A stretch of DNA of 7,700 nucleotides from a virus (taxonomy: Duplodnaviria > Heunggongvirae > Uroviricota > Caudoviricetes). Both the position numbers and the translations under genes were made by a program. The notes beneath the pieces were generated by a model that saw only the letters and a list, made by a program, of their open reading frames with translations, searched no databases and was not told the DNA's origin. Shown here piece by piece: positions 1-7,700 of the stretch; the first letter of the stretch is position 1; each line of letters begins with the position of its first letter. The stretch lies in the IMG/VR virus record IMGVR_UViG_2695420698_000002; one strand, written 5' to 3'.

Positions 1-2126
1 AACGATACCGACGCCGGATCGCCCTGCTGCCCCCACGCATTTACTGCCCGGACTGTCAGCCTGTAGTTCCCCAGCGCCAGTTGTGTGAAGCGGTAAGTGG
101 TTTCCGTCGTCCGGGCCGTGCTGACCAGCCGCTCACTGCCGTCATCCGCTGTTACGGTCAGACGGAGCAGGAAGCTCACGCCCTTCACCACCTTCGGCGT
201 GTCCCAGCGCGCCAGCACCTGATATTCCCCGCTGTCTGCGGTGACTTCGGCAGTCAGGTGCTGCACCGCTGGCGGCGTGACACCATTCACCGTGCCGCTC
301 TGGTCGCCGTCAAAGTGCGCCCCGTTATCCACGATGGCTTCTTTTTCCGGCACATGCTGCACGGCGGTGATGGCATACGTGCCGTCGTCGTTCTCACGGA
401 TACTCACGCAGCGGAACAATCGCTGGTGCAGCGTCGGCAGCTTCAGCCCCCACACGCTGTATTCAGCAACACCGTCAGGAACACGGCTCACTTTTACCTT
501 CACGCCGTCGGTGACGGACTGGACCTCCACGCTGACCGGATTCCCCTGCCCGTCAACCAGGCTTATCAGCGTGGTGCCGGAGGATGGCAGCGTGATTTCA
601 CGGTCGAGCGTCAGCGTCCGGGTCTGGCTGTTCACCGCCAGCACGCGCCCGCCGGTGCGGATACCGGCATAGTCATCATCGCAGATTTCAATGACATCGC
701 CCGGTACATGACGAAGCCCTTCAGCACCCACGCTGAAATCCACGGTCTGCGTCTCCAGCAGTTCCGTTTTAATCAGCCACAGCCCGGCGCGGTGTGCCTG
801 CCCCCGGCTGGTACAGCCAAAGGCATCCATCTTCGTGACGTTACGACCGTAACGGACAATGGCCTGCGTATCCTCCACAAGCTCTGTCGCCGTCTCCCAG
901 CCGTTATCCGGGTCAATCCAGTTCACCTCAACGGCATTATGGCGGTCTTTCAGGGCGCTGAAACTGTAGCGGAACGGCGCGCCATCATCCGGCATCACCA
1001 CATTACTGCGGTTATAGGCCCACACCTTATCCGACTGTCGGTCCTGCACGAACGTCAGCGTCTGCCCGTTCCATACCGGCATACAGCGCATCGCCGAGCA
1101 GAAATCACTGAGCACATCCCACGCCTTGCGCTGTGTGGTCAGCCAGGCATTACAGGTGATGCGCGGCTCCGTGCTGCCAAAGCCGTCCGGCACCGACTGG
1201 TCACAGTACTGGCCGATGACATACAGCGCCCATTTATCCACATCTGCCGCACCAAGACGTTTCCCCATGCCATAGCGCGGATGGGTCAGCATATCCCACA
1301 GACACCAGGCCATGTTGTTGCTGTATGCCGGTTTTAACGTTCCGTCCCAGATACCGCTGTATTGCCGCGTCTGCGGATTATAGTTCGACGGCACCTGCAG
1401 AATGCGCCCGCGAAGATGATAATTACGGCTCACCTGCTGGCTGCCGAACTGCTCCGAATCCACCTGTACGCCGACCAGTGCCGTGTTCGGGTAGCACTGT
1501 TTCACATCGATGATTTCGGTGTATGACGACCAGAGCGTTTTGTTCTGCAGCTGGTCTGTGGTGCTGTCCGGTGTCATCCTGCGCATCCGGATATTAAACG
1601 GGCGCGGCGGCAGGTTATCCACCACCACCGAGGCCAGATACTGCGAGGTGGTTTTGCCCTTAATGGTGATGTCTTTTTCCGTCACCCAGCCACCGTTACG
1701 CTGTATCTGAACCAGCAGGCGAACTTCAGACGGATTCCTGTCTCCCTTTGAGGTGGTTTCCACCAGTGCCTGTACACCGAAGGTAAAACGCAGTCGGTCA
1801 ATGTTTGCCGACGTGATGGTCCGGGTGATCGGCGTGTCATATTTCACTTCCGTACCCAGCACCGTCTCGGAGCCGGAGGATTCAAATCCCTCCGGCGGTG
1901 ACTGCTCCTGCTCACCTGCCCGGAACACCACCGTGACGCCGGAGATGTTGGTATTCCCCTCACTGTCCAGCACCGGCGTACTGTTCAGCAGCACGCTTTT
2001 TAATCCATCCACCGGACCTTCAACCGGCCCTTCGCTGATGGCATCGATCACACTCAGCAGCTGCGTGGACTTCAGGTTGTCCTTCGCTTCGCGCGGGGTA
2101 TGCCCCTTACTGCTGCCTTTACCCAT
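1..2126 (-). CDS. J: Tail-tip host-specificity / central tail fibre protein (lambda gpJ-type), N-terminal ~708 codons; 3' end beyond window start
   Basis: Minus-strand ATG at 2126 (plus 'cat' 2124-2126) encodes MGKGSSKGHTPREAKDNLKSTQ. The ORF track lists no minus-strand ORF anywhere in 1-2186, consistent with this frame staying open to the window edge. My own translation of the reverse complement gives PAYSNNMAWCLWDMLTHPRYGMG (~1270-1340) and LTVRAVNAWGQQGDPASVSF (1-59), both matching lambda gpJ as I recall it. gpJ is 1132 aa, so the receptor-binding C-terminus is outside the window. Confidence 0.9.
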   Translation of the reverse strand, partial: MGKGSSKGHTPREAKDNLKSTQLLSVIDAISEGPVEGPVDGLKSVLLNSTPVLDSEGNTNISGVTVVFRAGEQEQSPPEGFESSGSETVLGTEVKYDTPITRTITSANIDRLRFTFGVQALVETTSKGDRNPSEVRLLVQIQRNGGWVTEKDITIKGKTTSQYLASVVVDNLPPRPFNIRMRRMTPDSTTDQLQNKTLWSSYTEIIDVKQCYPNTALVGVQVDSEQFGSQQVSRNYHLRGRILQVPSNYNPQTRQYSGIWDGTLKPAYSNNMAWCLWDMLTHPRYGMGKRLGAADVDKWALYVIGQYCDQSVPDGFGSTEPRITCNAWLTTQRKAWDVLSDFCSAMRCMPVWNGQTLTFVQDRQSDKVWAYNRSNVVMPDDGAPFRYSFSALKDRHNAVEVNWIDPDNGWETATELVEDTQAIVRYGRNVTKMDAFGCTSRGQAHRAGLWLIKTELLETQTVDFSVGAEGLRHVPGDVIEICDDDYAGIRTGGRVLAVNSQTRTLTLDREITLPSSGTTLISLVDGQGNPVSVEVQSVTDGVKVKVSRVPDGVAEYSVWGLKLPTLHQRLFRCVSIRENDDGTYAITAVQHVPEKEAIVDNGAHFDGDQSGTVNGVTPPAVQHLTAEVTADSGEYQVLARWDTPKVVKGVSFLLRLTVTADDGSERLVSTARTTETTYRFTQLALGNYRLTVRAVNAWGQQGDPASVS

Positions 2127-2147
2127 TCGTCATGCTCCATAAACGAT

Positions 2148-2168
2148 AAAACCGCCCGGAGGCGATTT
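2148..2168 (-). other. Imperfect hairpin in the I'-J intergenic spacer (copy 1)
   Basis: aaaaccgcc-cgga-ggcgattt: a 4-bp perfect GC core with flanking A/T pairs and one C.A mismatch. It sits in the ~60-nt gap between the I' stop (2187-2189) and the J start (2126). Confidence 0.3.
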
Positions 2169-2186
2169 CACATAAAACATTTTGCA

Positions 2187-2898
2187 TCAGCGACCAATCA
2201 CCACAACCTGACCACCGTCCCCTTCGTCTGCCGTGCTGATCTCCTGAGATACCACACGTGACCCCACGCGCATTTCACCATACAGAACAGGCATAACATT
2301 GCCCTGGGCAACCATGTTATCCAGTGAGGAGAAATAGGTGTTCTGCTTACCGTTATCCGTTGTCTGTGTGCGGGGAGTTCTGGCTTTCGGTGCCAGCATC
2401 TGAGCCACACCGCCGAGCACCATACTGGCACCGAGAGAAAACAGAATGCCGGTCATACCACCGGCACCAATGGCAGCCCCCCATGCTGCNNNNNNNNNNN
2501 NNNNNNNNNNNNNNNNNNNNNNNNNCTGCAAGGGTGGCTCCGGCGGTAAAGAATGATCCGGCAATGGCGGCTGCTCCCAGGACAATCTGGAATACACCAC
2601 CTGACTTGGCCCCGGCGACTCTGGGAACAATATGAATCACAGCGCCGTCAGGCAGAGCCTCATGTAACTGTGCCGTTAATCCGGACGTGCTAACATCCTG
2701 CCCGGCAATACGCACCTGATACCAGCCGTCGCTCAGCTTCTGACGAAACGCAGGGAGCTGTGTGGCCATCGCCCGGATGGCTTCGGCACCCGTTTTCACA
2801 CGAAGGTCGATGCGGCGGCCAAATCGTTGCAAATCCCCGTAAAGGCAGATGCGTGCCATGCCCGGTGACGCCAGAGGGAGTGTGTGCGTCGCTGCCAT
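2187..2898 (-). CDS. I: Tail-tip assembly protein I (lambda gpI-type, 223-aa allele), interrupted by a 36-nt N run
   Basis: Start at 2898 encodes MAATHTLPLASPGMARICLYGDLQRFGRRIDL; stop is TGA (plus 'tca' 2187-2189); C-terminus is ...ISTADEGDGGQVVVIGR. The frames either side of the N run differ by one, but the flanks overlap by 4 nt (ctgc). Removing the Ns and one ctgc gives a 672-nt ORF reading ...GATLAAWGAAIGAGG..., which is contiguous gpI. Confidence 0.8.
2490..2525. other. Run of 36 N (gap or masked bases) inside I'
   Basis: Directly visible; flanked by a duplicated ctgc. Confidence 0.99.
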
Positions 2899-3422
2899 TT
2901 GTCGGTATACCTCTCTCGTTTGCTCAGTTGTTCAGGAATATGGTGCAGCAGCTCGCCGTCACCACAGTAAATGGCGGCATGATTCGGCACCGATGAACCA
3001 AAACAGCACAGCAGCACATCGCCCGGCTGCGCCGCTGACAACGGCACCTGATACAGCCCTGTGGCCTCCAGATTATCCAGATAGAGATTCTGACCGTGAC
3101 GCCACCAGTCATCCTCACGATGAAAATCCGGCATCTCAATCCCCGCCAGATGGTAAGCATCCCGGAACAGCGTGTAACAGTCCGTCACCCCGTGCTCAAA
3201 GCGCCGCCCGGTAAGATGTGGCACACAGCGGAACTTGTGAATCGCCCCCCGGCAGACCAGCCACCACGGCAAATCACTCTGCACCTGCAGCCGCCGGTCG
3301 GCCTCACTCAGCCAGGGCAGACCACCGGGGTGGCTGTGGACCAGTGCCACAATCTCACCCTGCATCTCTGCCTGCAGCCAGTCTTCCGGCGACATACGGA
3401 AATACGCCTCCGGCTCACCGGA
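2796..3422 (-). pseudogene. K: Tail-tip assembly protein K (gpK-type, MPN/JAMM + NlpC/P60), C-terminal ~208 codons, fused in frame to a J N-terminal fragment
   Basis: Lower part of the 334-aa ORF 2796..3800. After the X it reads SGEPEAYFRMSPEDWL...HSHPGGLPWLSEAD...GVTDCYTLFRDAYHLAG...ASTFV, which is collinear with residues ~40-247 of the full K copy at 4400..5143. Its 3' end overlaps the I' start, as in the intact copy. Confidence 0.75.
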
Positions 3423-3423
3423 N
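3423..3423. other. Single ambiguous base (N) at the J-fragment / K-fragment junction
   Basis: 'ccggaNgaggtggtttcc': the left flank matches K (ccggagatatt at ~5030) and the right flank matches J (gaggtggtttcc at ~1750). Confidence 0.95.
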
Positions 3424-3800
3424 GAGGTGGTTTCCACCAGTGCCTGCACACCGAAGGTCAGGCGCAGACGGTCGATGTTTGCCGACGTGATGGTCCGGGT
3501 GATCGGCGTGTCATATTTCACTTCCGTACCCAGCACCGTCTCGGAGCCGGAGGATTCAAAACCCTCCGGCGGTGTCTGCTCCTGCTCACCTGCACGGAAC
3601 ACCACCGTAACACCGGAAAAGTTTGTCTTCCCCTCGCTGTCCAGGACCGGCGTACCGTTCAGCAGCACGCTTTTTAATCCATCCACCGGACCGTCAACCG
3701 GCCCTTCGCTGATGGCATCAATCACACTCAGCAACTGCGTGGATTTCAGGTTGTCCTTCGCTTCGCGCGGGGTATGCCCCTTACTGCTGCCTTTACCCAT
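3424..3800 (-). pseudogene. J: Host-specificity protein J, N-terminal ~126-codon fragment (second, diverged copy)
   Basis: ATG at 3800 encodes MGKGSSKGHTPREAKDNLKSTQLLSVIDAISEGP...RLRLTFGVQALVETT, then switches to K sequence at the N at 3423. It differs from the copy at 1750-2126 by several substitutions, seen in the paired antisense ORFs 1753..2142 and 3427..3816. Confidence 0.75.
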
Positions 3801-3822
3801 TCCTCACGCTCCATAAACGACA

Positions 3823-3842
3823 AAACCGCCCGCAGGCGGTTT
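3823..3842 (-). other. Perfect 8-bp hairpin in the I-J intergenic spacer (copy 2)
   Basis: aaaccgcc-cgca-ggcggttt. On the sense (minus) strand it is followed by TTTTGTCGTTT and lies ~20 nt upstream of the J-fragment ATG. Possible RNA structure or weak attenuator; function not established. Confidence 0.35.
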
Positions 3843-3860
3843 CACATAAAACATTTTGCA

Positions 3861-4502
3861 TCAGCGACCAATCACCACAACCTGACCACCATCCCCTTCG
3901 TCTGCCGTGCTGATCTCCTGAGAAACCACACGTGACCCCACGCGCATTTCACCGTACAGAACGGGCAGAACATTGCCCTGGGCAACCATGTTATCCAGTG
4001 ACGAGAAATACGTGTTCTGCTTACCGTTATCCGTTGTCTGTGTACGGGGAGTTCTGGCTTTCGGTGCCAGCATCTGTGCAACACCGCCAAGCGTCATACT
4101 GGCACCGAGAGAAAACAGCAGATTACTCGCCATAATTCCTACCCCCGGCATCCATATAGCAACCGCCATAACAGCCGCCCCCAGCACCGCCTGAAACACA
4201 CCGCCACTTTTAGCTCCCACCAGACGCGGTACTATGTGGATCACTGCACCATTTGCCAGCGGCTCATTAAGACGGGCAGACAATTCGGTTTCACCTGCAT
4301 CACGCCCGGCAATGCGCACCTGATACCAGCCGTCACTCAGTTTCTGACGAAACGCCGGGAGCTGTGTGGCCAGTGCCCGGATGGCTTCAGCCCCCGTTTT
4401 CACACGAAGGTCGATGCGGCGACCAAATCGTTGTAAATCCCCGTAAAGGCAGATGCGCGCCATGCCCGGTGACGCCAGAGGGAGTGTGTGCGTCGCTGCC
4501 AT
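3861..4502 (-). CDS. I: Tail-tip assembly protein I (gpI-type), 213-aa allele
   Basis: Complete ORF from MAATHTLPLASPGMARICLYGDLQRFGRRIDL to ...ISTADEGDGGQVVVIGR. It is 10 aa shorter than the I' allele, with the difference in the hydrophobic Gly/Ala-rich central segment. Confidence 0.9.
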   Translation of the reverse strand: MAATHTLPLASPGMARICLYGDLQRFGRRIDLRVKTGAEAIRALATQLPAFRQKLSDGWYQVRIAGRDAGETELSARLNEPLANGAVIHIVPRLVGAKSGGVFQAVLGAAVMAVAIWMPGVGIMASNLLFSLGASMTLGGVAQMLAPKARTPRTQTTDNGKQNTYFSSLDNMVAQGNVLPVLYGEMRVGSRVVSQEISTADEGDGGQVVVIGR

Positions 4503-5143
4503 TTGTCGGTGTACCTCTCTCGTTTGCTCAGTTGTTCAGGAATATGGTGCAGCAGCTCGCCGTCACCACAGTAAATGGCGGCATGATTCGGCACCGATGA
4601 ACCAAAACAGCACAGCAGCACATCGCCCGGCTGTGCCTCTGTCAGTGCGACACGGTAAAAACCCGTCACCTCCATATTGTCAAGATAGAGATTCTGACCG
4701 TTACGCCACCAGTCATCCCCGCGATGAAAATCCGGCATCTCAATCCCTGCCAGATGATAAGCATCCCGGAACAGCGTGTAACAGTCCGTCACCCCGTGCT
4801 CAAAGCGCCGCCCGGTGAGATGCGGCACACAGCGGAACTTGTGAATCGCCCCCCGGCAGACCAGCCACCACGGCAAATCACTCTGCACCTGCAGCCGCCG
4901 GTCGGCCTCACTCAGCCAGGGCAGACCACCGGGGTGGCTGTGGACCAGTGCCACAATCTCACCCTGCATCTCTGCCTGCAGCCAGTCTTCCGGCGACATA
5001 CGGAAATACGCCTCCGGCTCACCGGAGATATTCACGCAGGGGAAATATCTTTCCCCCTCCGGCGTTCTTACCACGAAGCCGCACGACTCCGCTGGAGCAC
5101 ATCGCCGGGCGTGCGCCAGAATCGCTGATTCTGTCTCTGTCAT
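4400..5143 (-). CDS. K: Tail-tip assembly protein K (gpK-type), 247-codon ORF with MPN/JAMM motif and NlpC/P60-like Cys/His region
   Basis: Starts MTQTESAILAHARRCAPAESCGFVV. JAMM signature H-x-H-x7-S-x2-D is present as HSHPGGLPWLSEAD (residues ~68-81). Cys/His-containing region GVTDCYTLFRDAYH...HAAIYCGDGELLHH follows. The ATG lies 5 nt downstream of the L' stop. The ORF overlaps the I start by ~103 nt in another frame. Confidence 0.9.
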   Translation of the reverse strand: MTETESAILAHARRCAPAESCGFVVRTPEGERYFPCVNISGEPEAYFRMSPEDWLQAEMQGEIVALVHSHPGGLPWLSEADRRLQVQSDLPWWLVCRGAIHKFRCVPHLTGRRFEHGVTDCYTLFRDAYHLAGIEMPDFHRGDDWWRNGQNLYLDNMEVTGFYRVALTEAQPGDVLLCCFGSSVPNHAAIYCGDGELLHHIPEQLSKRERYTDKWQRRTHSLWRHRAWRASAFTGIYNDLVAASTFV

Positions 5144-5148
5144 GGGAT

Positions 5149-5847
5149 TTACTGCGAAAGTTTGTTAATGGAAAGGAAGCCGCCAAAGTTGCCGACGTTA
5201 TTGCGAAACTTACAGCCACTCAGGCATTTGCTGCATTTATCCTTCGTGATGTCGGACGTTGGCTGGTCATATTCATCCGCGACCGCCGGACCGTGATAAC
5301 CGCACTCATCGCCGCGATAGGTCCAGGTGCAGGTGTTGGCCAGCATGATACGTCCCGGAAAAACAGCGCCATCTGTTTCCGTCGGCGTGGACAGTACAAA
5401 AGAGGCACTCACCGCGCTCAGTTCGCTGCACTGCTCAATGCGCCAGCGGCTGATCACCTCCTGCTCCGGATCGGCGTCACTGTTTCCGTTGACGAAGTTC
5501 ACCGCATCCAGAAAACGGGCGTAAACCTTACGCCGGACCACCGTTCCGCCGACCAGACTCTGTAGATCTTCCGCCATCCCGGTGACCATACCGTACAGGT
5601 TAGAAACCATCAGCGTGGGGCGCGTACTGGTGCCTTTGCCATTCAGTTCAAAACCACTCCCCTGAATGGGATACGGCTGATACTGTCGCCCCTGCCAGGT
5701 GACCGGCTCACCTTTTTCGTTCTGCTCATTACAGAAAAAATAACGTTCTCCACCGACCTCTGTCAGATCGATTTCCCAGAGCACCACGCTGGCCGACTGC
5801 TCCGCACGGGTGCATTCATTCAGTGTTTCCTGCCGGATATCCTGCAT
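5149..5847 (-). CDS. L: Tail-tip assembly protein L (lambda gpL-type), 232 aa
   Basis: MQDIRQETLNECTRAEQSASVVLWEIDLTEVGGERYFFCNEQNEKGEPVTWQGRQYQ...CSKCLSGC...FLSINKLSQ. Length and sequence match lambda gpL as I recall it. The C-terminal cysteine cluster is present. The start overlaps the M' stop (TGATG). Confidence 0.92.
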   Translation of the reverse strand: MQDIRQETLNECTRAEQSASVVLWEIDLTEVGGERYFFCNEQNEKGEPVTWQGRQYQPYPIQGSGFELNGKGTSTRPTLMVSNLYGMVTGMAEDLQSLVGGTVVRRKVYARFLDAVNFVNGNSDADPEQEVISRWRIEQCSELSAVSASFVLSTPTETDGAVFPGRIMLANTCTWTYRGDECGYHGPAVADEYDQPTSDITKDKCSKCLSGCKFRNNVGNFGGFLSINKLSQ

Positions 5848-6125
5848 CAGTTCACCACCTGTTCAAACTCTGCGCTGAACTCAACACGCAGCATACTGAC
5901 CCGCGACGACCATTTTGCGCAGGTCACCTTTATCTGCCGCCACTCATAAGGCGGCGTCCACAGAAAGGCTTTCCAGCCCCCGTGCTCTTCCAGAAACGAC
6001 TCCAGTACCATGGCCTCCTCACGGGGGACAGAAAGCGTCACGCTGTACGTTTTCAGGTTGGCATTCAGCCCGGCAGGCGCTCGCTGGGAATAGCCATCAC
6101 CAAAGCGCACCTTTCTTACAGAAGG
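5847..6125 (-). pseudogene. M: Tail-tip assembly protein M, diverged allele, C-terminal ~92 codons; 5' end replaced by N run and K sequence
   Basis: PSVRKVRFGDGYSQRAPAGLNANLKTYSVTLSVPREEAMVLESFLEEHGGWKAFLWTPPYEWRQIKVTCAKWSSRVSMLRVEFSAEFEQVVN aligns collinearly with residues ~18-109 of the M at 7261..7590 (shared GDGY, TYSV, FLExHGG, WTPPY, KW, FEQVV) but with many substitutions. Stop is TGA at 5847-5849. Confidence 0.7.
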
Positions 6126-6136
6126 NNNNNNNNNNN
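6126..6136. other. Run of 11 N at the K-fragment / M'-fragment junction
   Basis: Directly visible. The right flank (ccggcatctcaatccctgcc) is K sequence, identical to ~4733-4752; the left flank is M' sequence. Confidence 0.99.
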
Positions 6137-6548
6137 CCGGCATCTCAATCCCTGCCAGATGATAAGCATCCCGGAACAGCGTGTAACAGTCCGTCACCCC
6201 GTGCTCAAAGCGCCGCCCGGTGAGATGCGGCACACAGCGGAACTTGTGAATCGCCCCCCGGCAGACCAGCCACCACGGCAAATCACTCTGCACCTGCAGC
6301 CGCCGGTCAGCCTCACTCAGCCAGGGCAGACCACCGGGATGACTGTGGACCAGCGCCACAATCTCACCCTGCATTTGTGCCCGCAGCCAGTCCTCCGGAG
6401 CCATCCGGAACCGTTCCTCCGGCTCACCGGAGATATTCTCGCTGGGAAGATACCTGTCTCCCTCCGGCGTTCTTACCACGAAGCCACACGACTCCGCTGG
6501 CGCACATCGCCGGGCGTGCGCCAGAATCGCTGATTCTGTCTGTGTCAT
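6137..6548 (-). pseudogene. K: Tail-tip assembly protein K, N-terminal ~138 codons (diverged allele), truncated at the N run and fused in frame to the M' fragment
   Basis: ATG at 6548 (plus 'cat' 6546-6548), 4 nt after the L stop. Encodes MTQTESAILAHARRCAPAESCGFVVRTPEGDRYLPSENISGEPEERFRMAPEDWLRAQMQ...HSHPGGLPWLSEAD...HLAGIEMP and then runs into the Ns. It differs from the K at 4400..5143 at several residues. Confidence 0.75.
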
Positions 6549-6552
6549 GGAT

Positions 6553-7251
6553 TTACTGAGAAAGTTTATTGATGGAAAGGAAACCGCCGAAATTACCGGT
6601 ATTGTTGCGCAACTCACACCCGCGCATACACTTGCTGCATTTGTCCTTCCGGATATCCGTCGTTGGTTTGTCGAACTCGTCAGCCACTGCCCTGCCCGTG
6701 TAACCACACTCATCAGAACGGTAAGTCCACATACAGGTATTCGCCAGCATGATACGCCCCGGGAAAACCGCGCCATCCGTCTCCGTTGGTGTGGCCAGCA
6801 CAAAAGAGGCACTGACCGCGCTCAGTTCGCTGCACTGCTCGATGCGCCAGCGGCTGATCACCTCCTGTTCCGGATCGGCGTCGCTGTTTCCGTTGACGAA
6901 GTTCACCGCATCCAGAAAACGGGCGTAAACCTTACGCCTGACCACCGTTCCGCCGACCAGACTCTGCAGGTCTTCCGCCATCCCGGTGACCATTCCGTGC
7001 AGGTTAGAAACCGTCAGTGTCGGACGGGCAGCACTGCCCTTGCCGTTCAGTTCAAATCCCGTCCCCTGAATGGGGTATGCCTGATACTGCCGCCCCTGCC
7101 AGGTAACCGGCTCACCTTTTTCGTTCTGCTCATTACAGAAAAAATAACGTTCTCCACCGACCTCTGTCAGATCGATTTCCCAGAGCACCACCTGGGCTGA
7201 CTGAGTGAGGCGTGTCGTCTCATGATGTGTTTCCTGTGGAATATCCTGCAT
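6553..7251 (-). CDS. L: Tail-tip assembly protein L (gpL-type), 232 aa, diverged allele
   Basis: MQDIPQETHHETTRLTQSAQVVLWEIDLTEVGGERYFFCNEQNEKGEPVTWQGRQYQ...CSKCMRGC...FLSINKLSQ. Same length as L', with substitutions clustered at the N-terminus and around the cysteine region. Confidence 0.9.
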   Translation of the reverse strand: MQDIPQETHHETTRLTQSAQVVLWEIDLTEVGGERYFFCNEQNEKGEPVTWQGRQYQAYPIQGTGFELNGKGSAARPTLTVSNLHGMVTGMAEDLQSLVGGTVVRRKVYARFLDAVNFVNGNSDADPEQEVISRWRIEQCSELSAVSASFVLATPTETDGAVFPGRIMLANTCMWTYRSDECGYTGRAVADEFDKPTTDIRKDKCSKCMRGCELRNNTGNFGGFLSINKLSQ

Positions 7252-7260
7252 CAGAGCCTC

Positions 7261-7590
7261 CTATGCCACGACCTGTTCAAAATCTGCCGTTATGGTTACC
7301 CACAACGCCCCCACGCTTGCCGACCATTTACGACAAACCACCCTGATCGGCTTCCAGTCATAAGGTGGCGTCCACTGAAATGCGCGGACGCCACCGTGCC
7401 GTTCCAGAAAGGCTTTTAAAAATGGGTGTTCACCTTTACGAACACGTATCTTCACGCTGTAAGTCGACAACTGGTTATTCAGTCCCGCCGCACGACGCTG
7501 TTCATAACCATCGCCCAGCTTCACTGTCACCACTTTCGGCTCTGATACCACATTCATATCCGGGCGCACTTTCCAGTGAAACGTCTCCAT
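7261..7590 (-). CDS. M: Tail-tip assembly protein M (lambda gpM-type), 109 aa
   Basis: METFHWKVRPDMNVVSEPKVVTVKLGDGYEQRRAAGLNNQLSTYSVKIRVRKGEHPFLKAFLERHGGVRAFQWTPPYDWKPIRVVCRKWSASVGALWVTITADFEQVVA. Length matches lambda gpM. Position is between the H end and L. Confidence 0.9.
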   Translation of the reverse strand: METFHWKVRPDMNVVSEPKVVTVKLGDGYEQRRAAGLNNQLSTYSVKIRVRKGEHPFLKAFLERHGGVRAFQWTPPYDWKPIRVVCRKWSASVGALWVTITADFEQVVA

Positions 7591-7700
7591 TACCGGTATG
7601 CTCCACTTAACCGGCCACCATCACGGGCCTGCTGTTGCATAAAGTCCGCGGCCGCTTTTTTCCCGAGGTCATAAACCACCTTCAGGGCAGCCGGACCTAT
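7590..7700 (-). CDS. H: Tape-measure protein (gpH-type), last 36 codons plus stop; 5' end beyond window
   Basis: My translation of the only open minus-strand frame gives IGPAALKVVYDLGKKAAADFMQQQARDGGRLSGAYR, ending in a TAA that shares its last A with the M start (TAATG). The other two frames have stops within the first 20 nt. Assignment is by synteny (H precedes M in lambda); the peptide was not matched from memory. Confidence 0.6.
   Translation of the reverse strand: MGPAALKVVYDLGKKAAADFMQQQARDGGRLSGAYR

Follow-up and report, generated by a model that had tools for sequence, protein, structure and literature searches.

A window of 7,700 nt, the whole stretch of DNA that was analysed, carries tail genes related to those of phage lambda, and in one of these, gene I', a run of 36 N interrupts the coding sequence. 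This raises the question of whether I' is disrupted, with foreign or lost sequence hidden behind the Ns, or whether the run arose in assembly and the gene is intact. From the sequence comparisons described here, we put the probability at about 0.9 that the run marks a scaffold gap left open in a short-read draft, with no sequence missing, and that I' is an intact 672-nt gene encoding a 223-aa gpI.

Gene I' and the N run within it

The features at this locus, which belongs to prophage P1, one of two lambdoid prophages (P1 and P2) represented in the window, are as follows.

2187..2898, minus strand: gene I' of prophage P1, encoding a lambda-type tail tip protein (gpI) and assigned from its translation, Pfam PF06805 and alignment with lambda gpI and with chain I of PDB 8iyk
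2530..2898, minus strand: I' codons 1-123, covering the Lambda_tail_I domain at the N-terminus and running into the Gly/Ala-rich hydrophobic segment
2187..2489, minus strand: I' codons 124-223 and the stop, including residues 135-223 (the plug)
2486..2489, plus strand: left copy of ctgc, the final 4 bases of the left contig end; a single ctgc occurs in relatives
2490..2525, no strand: run of 36 N, read as an unfilled scaffold gap with a true size of -4 nt, as the flanks adjoin each other in closed genomes and overlap there by 4 nt
2526..2529, plus strand: right copy of ctgc, the first 4 bases of the right contig end and apparently the same genomic bases as 2486-2489

The 36 Ns are the sole non-ACGT characters near the gene I' junction. 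The left flank ends in ...ccccccatgctgc and the right flank starts with ctgcaagggtgg, so that the plus strand across the gap reads ...ggcagccccccatgctgc, then 36 N, then ctgcaagggtggctcc.... The positions of the run and of the 4-nt duplication that flanks it agree with those reported in the initial annotation. For two random 4-mers in the composition of the window, the probability of being equal is approximately 0.0056 (about 0.6%).

As a separate observation, CTGC/GCAG is over-represented in the window as a whole, with 144 sites on both strands compared with 86 ± 8 expected from dinucleotide-preserving shuffles. This excess is probably a codon-usage effect of the Ala/Leu/Gln-rich tail proteins, and because of it the chance of a terminal match in ctgc is slightly higher.

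As written, gene I' consists of two minus-strand halves in different frames, within open reading frames (ORFs) at 2898..2353 and 2630..2187. Removal of 2490-2525 together with one ctgc (40 nt) shortens 2187..2898 from 712 to 672 nt and gives the junction sequence catgctgcaagggtgg. The minus strand then reads as one ORF of 223 aa plus stop, M...TAGATLAAWGAAIGAGG...VVVIGR, with ...FFTAGATLAAWGAAIGAGG... over the join, which falls at codons 124/125. This is the single 672-nt frame and 223-aa product that had been predicted for such a removal. The N run lies just upstream of residues 135-223, within the Gly/Ala-rich hydrophobic segment of gpI.

The restored product has the features of a lambda-type gpI. 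It scored 95.1 bits against Pfam PF06805 (Lambda_tail_I; gathering threshold 23.8), with residues 14-97 of I' on positions 2-83 of the 83 in the profile, and chain I of PDB 8iyk aligned over residues 1-223 with E = 1.9e-139. Compared with lambda gpI (NP_040599.1), 218 of the 223 residues are identical with 0 gaps, the differences being the five substitutions L44M, R67Q, T81A, I164T, and L189M. Residues 135-223 of gpI form a trimeric plug in the lumen of the lambda tail tip, under the gpH coiled coil (PMC10721106), and all of these residues are present in the restored product. The likeness extends to gene order, since I' is placed, as the Pfam families of its neighbours also show, between K (a JAB/NlpC-P60 peptidase) and J (the central tail fibre) in a lambda-type tail module, with the start of I overlapping the end of K, and the block that holds I' is colinear with lambda 14250-17630. 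The prophage itself differs from lambda in being that of a Shigella/E. coli lineage.

Two lengths are in use for gpI. In E. coli RefSeq records annotated with PGAP (loci L002, 6001-6573, and L003, 5187-5759), gene I is called as 573 nt and 190 aa, starting from the end of K. In the classical lambda annotation and in the deposited PDB chain, gpI has 223 aa and the gene overlaps K by about 100 nt. The length given for gpI thus varies with the pipeline, and the 223 aa given here follow the classical lambda annotation.

An uninterrupted ORF after joining is a weak test of how the flanks belong together. In-frame joins that removed -4, -1, +1, +4, +7 or +10 extra bases all stayed open, and we therefore rejected the single ORF as a discriminating criterion. 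Because of this, the decisive evidence must come from relatives.

The junction in related genomes

In the closed chromosome CP023645.1 (locus L024), the left flank (1-2489) aligned to 12858->10370 with 99.92% identity and the right flank (2526-3422) to 10373->9477 with 100% identity. The two alignments are contiguous and share 4 nt (10370-10373). Both flanks mapped with a 4-nt overlap and 99.9-100% identity in each of two closed chromosomes (L024 and L025). When the 3,382-nt block that contains the restored gene was compared with L024, the alignment was free of gaps and had 2 mismatches, both far off in J and none in I'. The restored 672-nt I' was found base for base in 8 fetched loci, 2 of which are closed chromosomes, and it is this exact identity to relatives that singles out the removal of 40 nt from the other in-frame joins. 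The exact 223-aa protein is likewise already on record, in 605 contig blocks of which 10 are contigs of more than 1 Mb, and the source name of the record is tail assembly protein, Shigella sonnei.

Wider searches gave the same picture. Among the matches listed to 2187-2898, from complete E. coli genomes and from phage records including lambda, each was exactly 672 nt in the subject. An exact 62-nt probe from the left flank was present in 18 IMG/VR contigs and was directly followed by aagggtgg in 18/18, and the intact 32-nt junction was present in 20 IMG/VR contigs. The 300-nt restored junction was covered over at least 80% of its length in 2,831 complete E. coli records. For inspection of individual matches we used a sample of 60 rows out of 3,286 matching E. 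coli records. In this sample, all 51 rows with at least 80% coverage were single pieces, and none of the 9 partial rows ended at the junction (query position 150); they ended at query positions 79-105, at the edge of a variable segment. Because there is a single ctgc in every relative, the window has 4 extra bases in addition to the Ns.

Several ways in which the Ns could stand for real bases were rejected on these data. A mask that preserves the length of real homologous sequence was rejected, as the relatives are 40 nt shorter than the window and not of equal length. A real insert of 22-50 nt is contradicted by zero matches to a junction with 22-50 intervening bases in viral_contigs (IMG/VR) and genome_contigs; this range defines the scan, and the gapped pattern matches the window itself, so it works on N runs. 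A real tandem duplication, ctgcctgc, was likewise rejected, as no example was found at the I' junction in the IMG/VR contigs scanned and such a duplication would have assembled straight through. Together, these comparisons support the earlier proposal that nothing has been lost and that the Ns only hold the place between contig ends that overlap, the flanks being contiguous with a 4-nt overlap in L024. They also bear out the advice against scoring the gene as disrupted, in so far as exactly the same restored gene and protein occur elsewhere.

A counterpoint to the reading as a scaffold gap is that the target-site duplication of an insertion sequence (IS) would likewise leave short direct repeats around an assembly gap. 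The gap might hide a strain-specific insertion, for example an IS of a family, common in Shigella, that makes 3-4 bp target duplications, in which case ctgc would be a real duplication and I' would be disrupted. The likeness to an IS with a short target-site duplication lies in the direct repeat of a few bases that flanks the gap, with a chance of only about 0.6%, and in the lineage, which is rich in IS and has several IS1 and IS3-family transposase genes near P2 in closed genomes; the break also falls in sequence that is unique within the window. By contrast, both flanks agree perfectly with P1 as far as the Ns and show no IS-terminal bases, whereas the other contig ends in the window run 203 and 172 nt into repeats (blocks A and C, listed below), and the gap is written as 36 nt and not as about 1 kb. 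The relatives differ from this expectation as well. Only intact junctions were found at the I' site in the 22-50 nt scan (20 intact IMG/VR junctions and 0 with an insert) and in the 60-row sample of 3,286 E. coli records, where no partial match ends at the junction, and no transposase gene lies within 10 kb of P1 in closed genomes. With no IS-end sequence in the flanks, we consider a hidden IS very unlikely. If it were there, the gene for the tail-tip plug of one lambdoid prophage would have been inactivated by an isolate-specific element, as one more step in the IS-driven decay of prophages in a Shigella-like lineage.

Two prophage tail modules in one draft contig

The window is the reverse complement of a whole 7,700-nt draft contig, CXCP01000192.1 (GCA_001257415.1). 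It contains three N runs, with lengths of 1 (3423), 11 (6126-6136), and 36 (2490-2525), and the pieces between them do not follow one another as in lambda. The features of the window as a whole are as follows.

1..3422, minus strand: Block A, prophage P1, carrying 2.1 kb from the 5' end of J, I' and the larger part of K, in pieces 1-2489 and 2526-3422, 99.9-100% identical to L024
3423..3423, no strand: single N, read as a scaffold misjoin between the middle of K in P1 and codon ~126 of J in P2, as the pieces are non-colinear
3424..6125, minus strand: Block B, an apparently chimeric contig, P2 then P1, with the switch in an 80-nt exact repeat (4824-4903)
3424-4903, minus strand: P2 part of Block B, with the 5' end of J, an I of 213 aa and the 3' part of K
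4824-6125, minus strand: P1 part of Block B, with the 5' part of K, L and most of M
6126..6136, no strand: run of 11 N, read as a scaffold misjoin between M in P1 and the middle of K in P2, as the pieces are non-colinear
6137..7700, minus strand: Block C, prophage P2, with the 3' end of H, M, L and the 5' part of K, 99.94% identical to L028

Each block is colinear with lambda on the minus strand, and the blocks overlap one another in lambda coordinates: window 1-3422 corresponds to lambda 17630->14250, window 3424-6125 to lambda 15881->13151, and window 6137-7700 begins at lambda 14543 and continues across L and M into H at its 3' end. Tiling against loci from closed genomes showed that two prophages suffice to explain the window, P1 (L024) and P2 (L028), both of which are in CP023645.1. 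The stretch at 4824-4903, within gene K, is identical in P1 and P2 and contains the switch in Block B. Sequence of Block B also recurs in its neighbours, 4824-5026 as the final 203 nt of Block A and 4732-4903 as the opening 172 nt of Block C. We re-cut the window into P1 (1-2489 + 2530-3422 + 5027-6125) and P2 (3424-4903 + 6309-7700). This gave two gap-free segments that account for the whole contig and match one closed chromosome, P1 with 4,481 nt at 99.955% identity to L024 and P2 with 2,872 nt at 99.896% identity to L028. These data indicate that scaffolding has tangled two lambdoid prophage tail modules together in the window.

Three ORFs in the window cross these joins. The first, of 247 aa (4400..5143, minus strand), is a hybrid of the P1 and P2 forms of K and is on record only on CXCP01000192.1 among the public assemblies searched. 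Because it is on record on one contig only, the hybrid K is probably a misassembly, and because the reverse complement of that contig is the window, the window is a scaffolded draft contig in its entirety. Less probably, the hybrid could come from a genuine third, recombinant copy of the prophage. The second is a J-K fusion of 334 aa (2796..3800, minus strand) that spans the single N at 3423 and was not found on record. The third, of 321 aa (5847..6812, minus strand), runs over the 11 Ns and consists of out-of-frame L sequence, the 5' part of K and then the 3' part of M. All three are probably assembly artefacts.

Because overlapping or paralogous pieces meet at the other N runs, the short N runs in the window are understood as links that the scaffolder placed between pieces whose true distance is negative. 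On the evidence of the alignments, the runs at 3423 and 6126-6136 are true misjoins, unlike the 36-N run, a distinction that the initial annotation had not made.

The three N runs also bear on a second alternative, in which the Ns in I' are an artefactual stretch (adaptor, contaminant or low-quality bases) that the assembler placed there and that was then masked, the gene still being intact in the organism. Submitters are known to mask internal stretches with Ns. A length of 36 is odd for a gap estimate, and the occurrence of three different lengths in one window (1, 11, and 36) would fit with masking. However, masking leaves unexplained why the 1-N and 11-N runs lie exactly at joins of non-colinear pieces, and a 4-nt overlap of the ends requires no such assumption. 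We regard masking as highly improbable, and the biological conclusion would be unchanged if it were true.

Least likely of all is that the flanks come from two prophage copies and that the restored I' is a chimera existing nowhere in the genome: the same event is seen 2.3 kb away, where P2 gives way to P1 within the K gene of Block B, and the other two N runs join different prophages, but here both flanks are P1, with 99.92% and 100% identity to the same closed-genome prophage, the gap lies inside a P1-specific segment (2445-2693) that has no DNA-level counterpart in P2, and the restored gene is present base for base in 8 loci.

Origin of the gap and its meaning for annotation

With the reading of the 36-N run as an unclosed scaffold gap, events in the assembly may have been as follows. 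The contig would have broken at I' for a technical reason, the simplest being a local lack of spanning k-mers or a dropout in coverage. Read pairs would then have re-linked the two P1 contig ends, and an N run of mis-estimated, in this case overestimated, length (36) would have been written between them. The true overlap of the ends, 4 nt (ctgc), would have been too short for an automatic merge, and gap filling could not have joined them. The content of the gap in CXCP01000192.1 is deduced from relatives.

A pipeline of the type Velvet + SSPACE + GapFiller would fit this sequence of events, because GapFiller makes a closure only when the extensions have 10 nt or more in common (the default) and the length of the fill departs from the estimate by no more than 50 nt (PMC3446322). 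The locus resembles the negative gaps left by SSPACE and GapFiller in having an N run between ends that really abut or overlap, with 4 nt being below the 10-nt threshold. The Sanger high-throughput pipeline, which combines Velvet, SSPACE, and GapFiller, is the source of very many bacterial assemblies in ENA, and its authors warn of greedy false joins and of N gaps that are left in place (PMC5320598). Two such false joins occur in CXCP01000192.1. In the portion of the accession list of that paper available to us, the CXCP prefix is not among the entries; 111 Shigella sonnei assemblies are given there, with prefixes such as CWWN.

The position of the break is a counterpoint to this account. It lies in the segment 2445-2693, which has no paralogue in the window, so repeat collapse is no obvious cause of the contig end. 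Sequence shared exactly with Block B stops at 2444, and no second copy of either flank end is present in the window. We also considered whether the boundary of a repeat shared with the paralogous I gene had caused the break, and rejected this, as the gap is 45 nt inside the P1-specific segment.

The N run in I' is an ordinary draft-assembly artefact in a well-known gene, and nothing about it is biologically new. As judged from the identical copies in relatives, gene I' is almost certainly intact. Because of the gap artefact, however, I' has already been lost from annotation. Existing gene calls on CXCP01000192.1 include only an 89-aa C-terminal fragment of I' (window 2187-2456; L037 5245-5514), which has no Pfam match, and there is no gene call for the N-terminal domain. 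With a frameshifted I' and an 89-aa fragment, a pseudogene count or a score of prophage intactness would wrongly call the tail module defective. I' should thus be treated as an intact gpI and not scored as disrupted. The 334-aa, 321-aa, and 247-aa ORFs could be mistaken for novel domain fusions and should be taken as artefacts until reads say otherwise. More generally, short N runs in scaffolded drafts should be compared with closed relatives before they are interpreted. The importance of these results is limited to annotation hygiene.

Single-N joins were also observed in related IMG/VR contigs from isolate genomes, at 5497 in L005, at 8215 in L015, and at 8199, 9658, and 11532 in L019. In these contigs the lambda-colinear blocks on either side of the N overlap in lambda coordinates, and in L005 and L015 the identity of the blocks to lambda differs across the single N (81% and 77%, respectively, compared with ~95%). 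This pattern points to the same scaffolding artefact, with single Ns linking different prophage copies, recurring in other draft assemblies.

A duplicated tail module was found in CP019689.1 (4630872-4651513; L034), where the P2-type module M-L-K-I-J occurs twice in tandem, at ~8318-14182 and 17735-20642. The two copies are ~9.4 kb apart, with IS3-family transposase genes between them. This indicates that duplication of the tail module occurs in this lineage.
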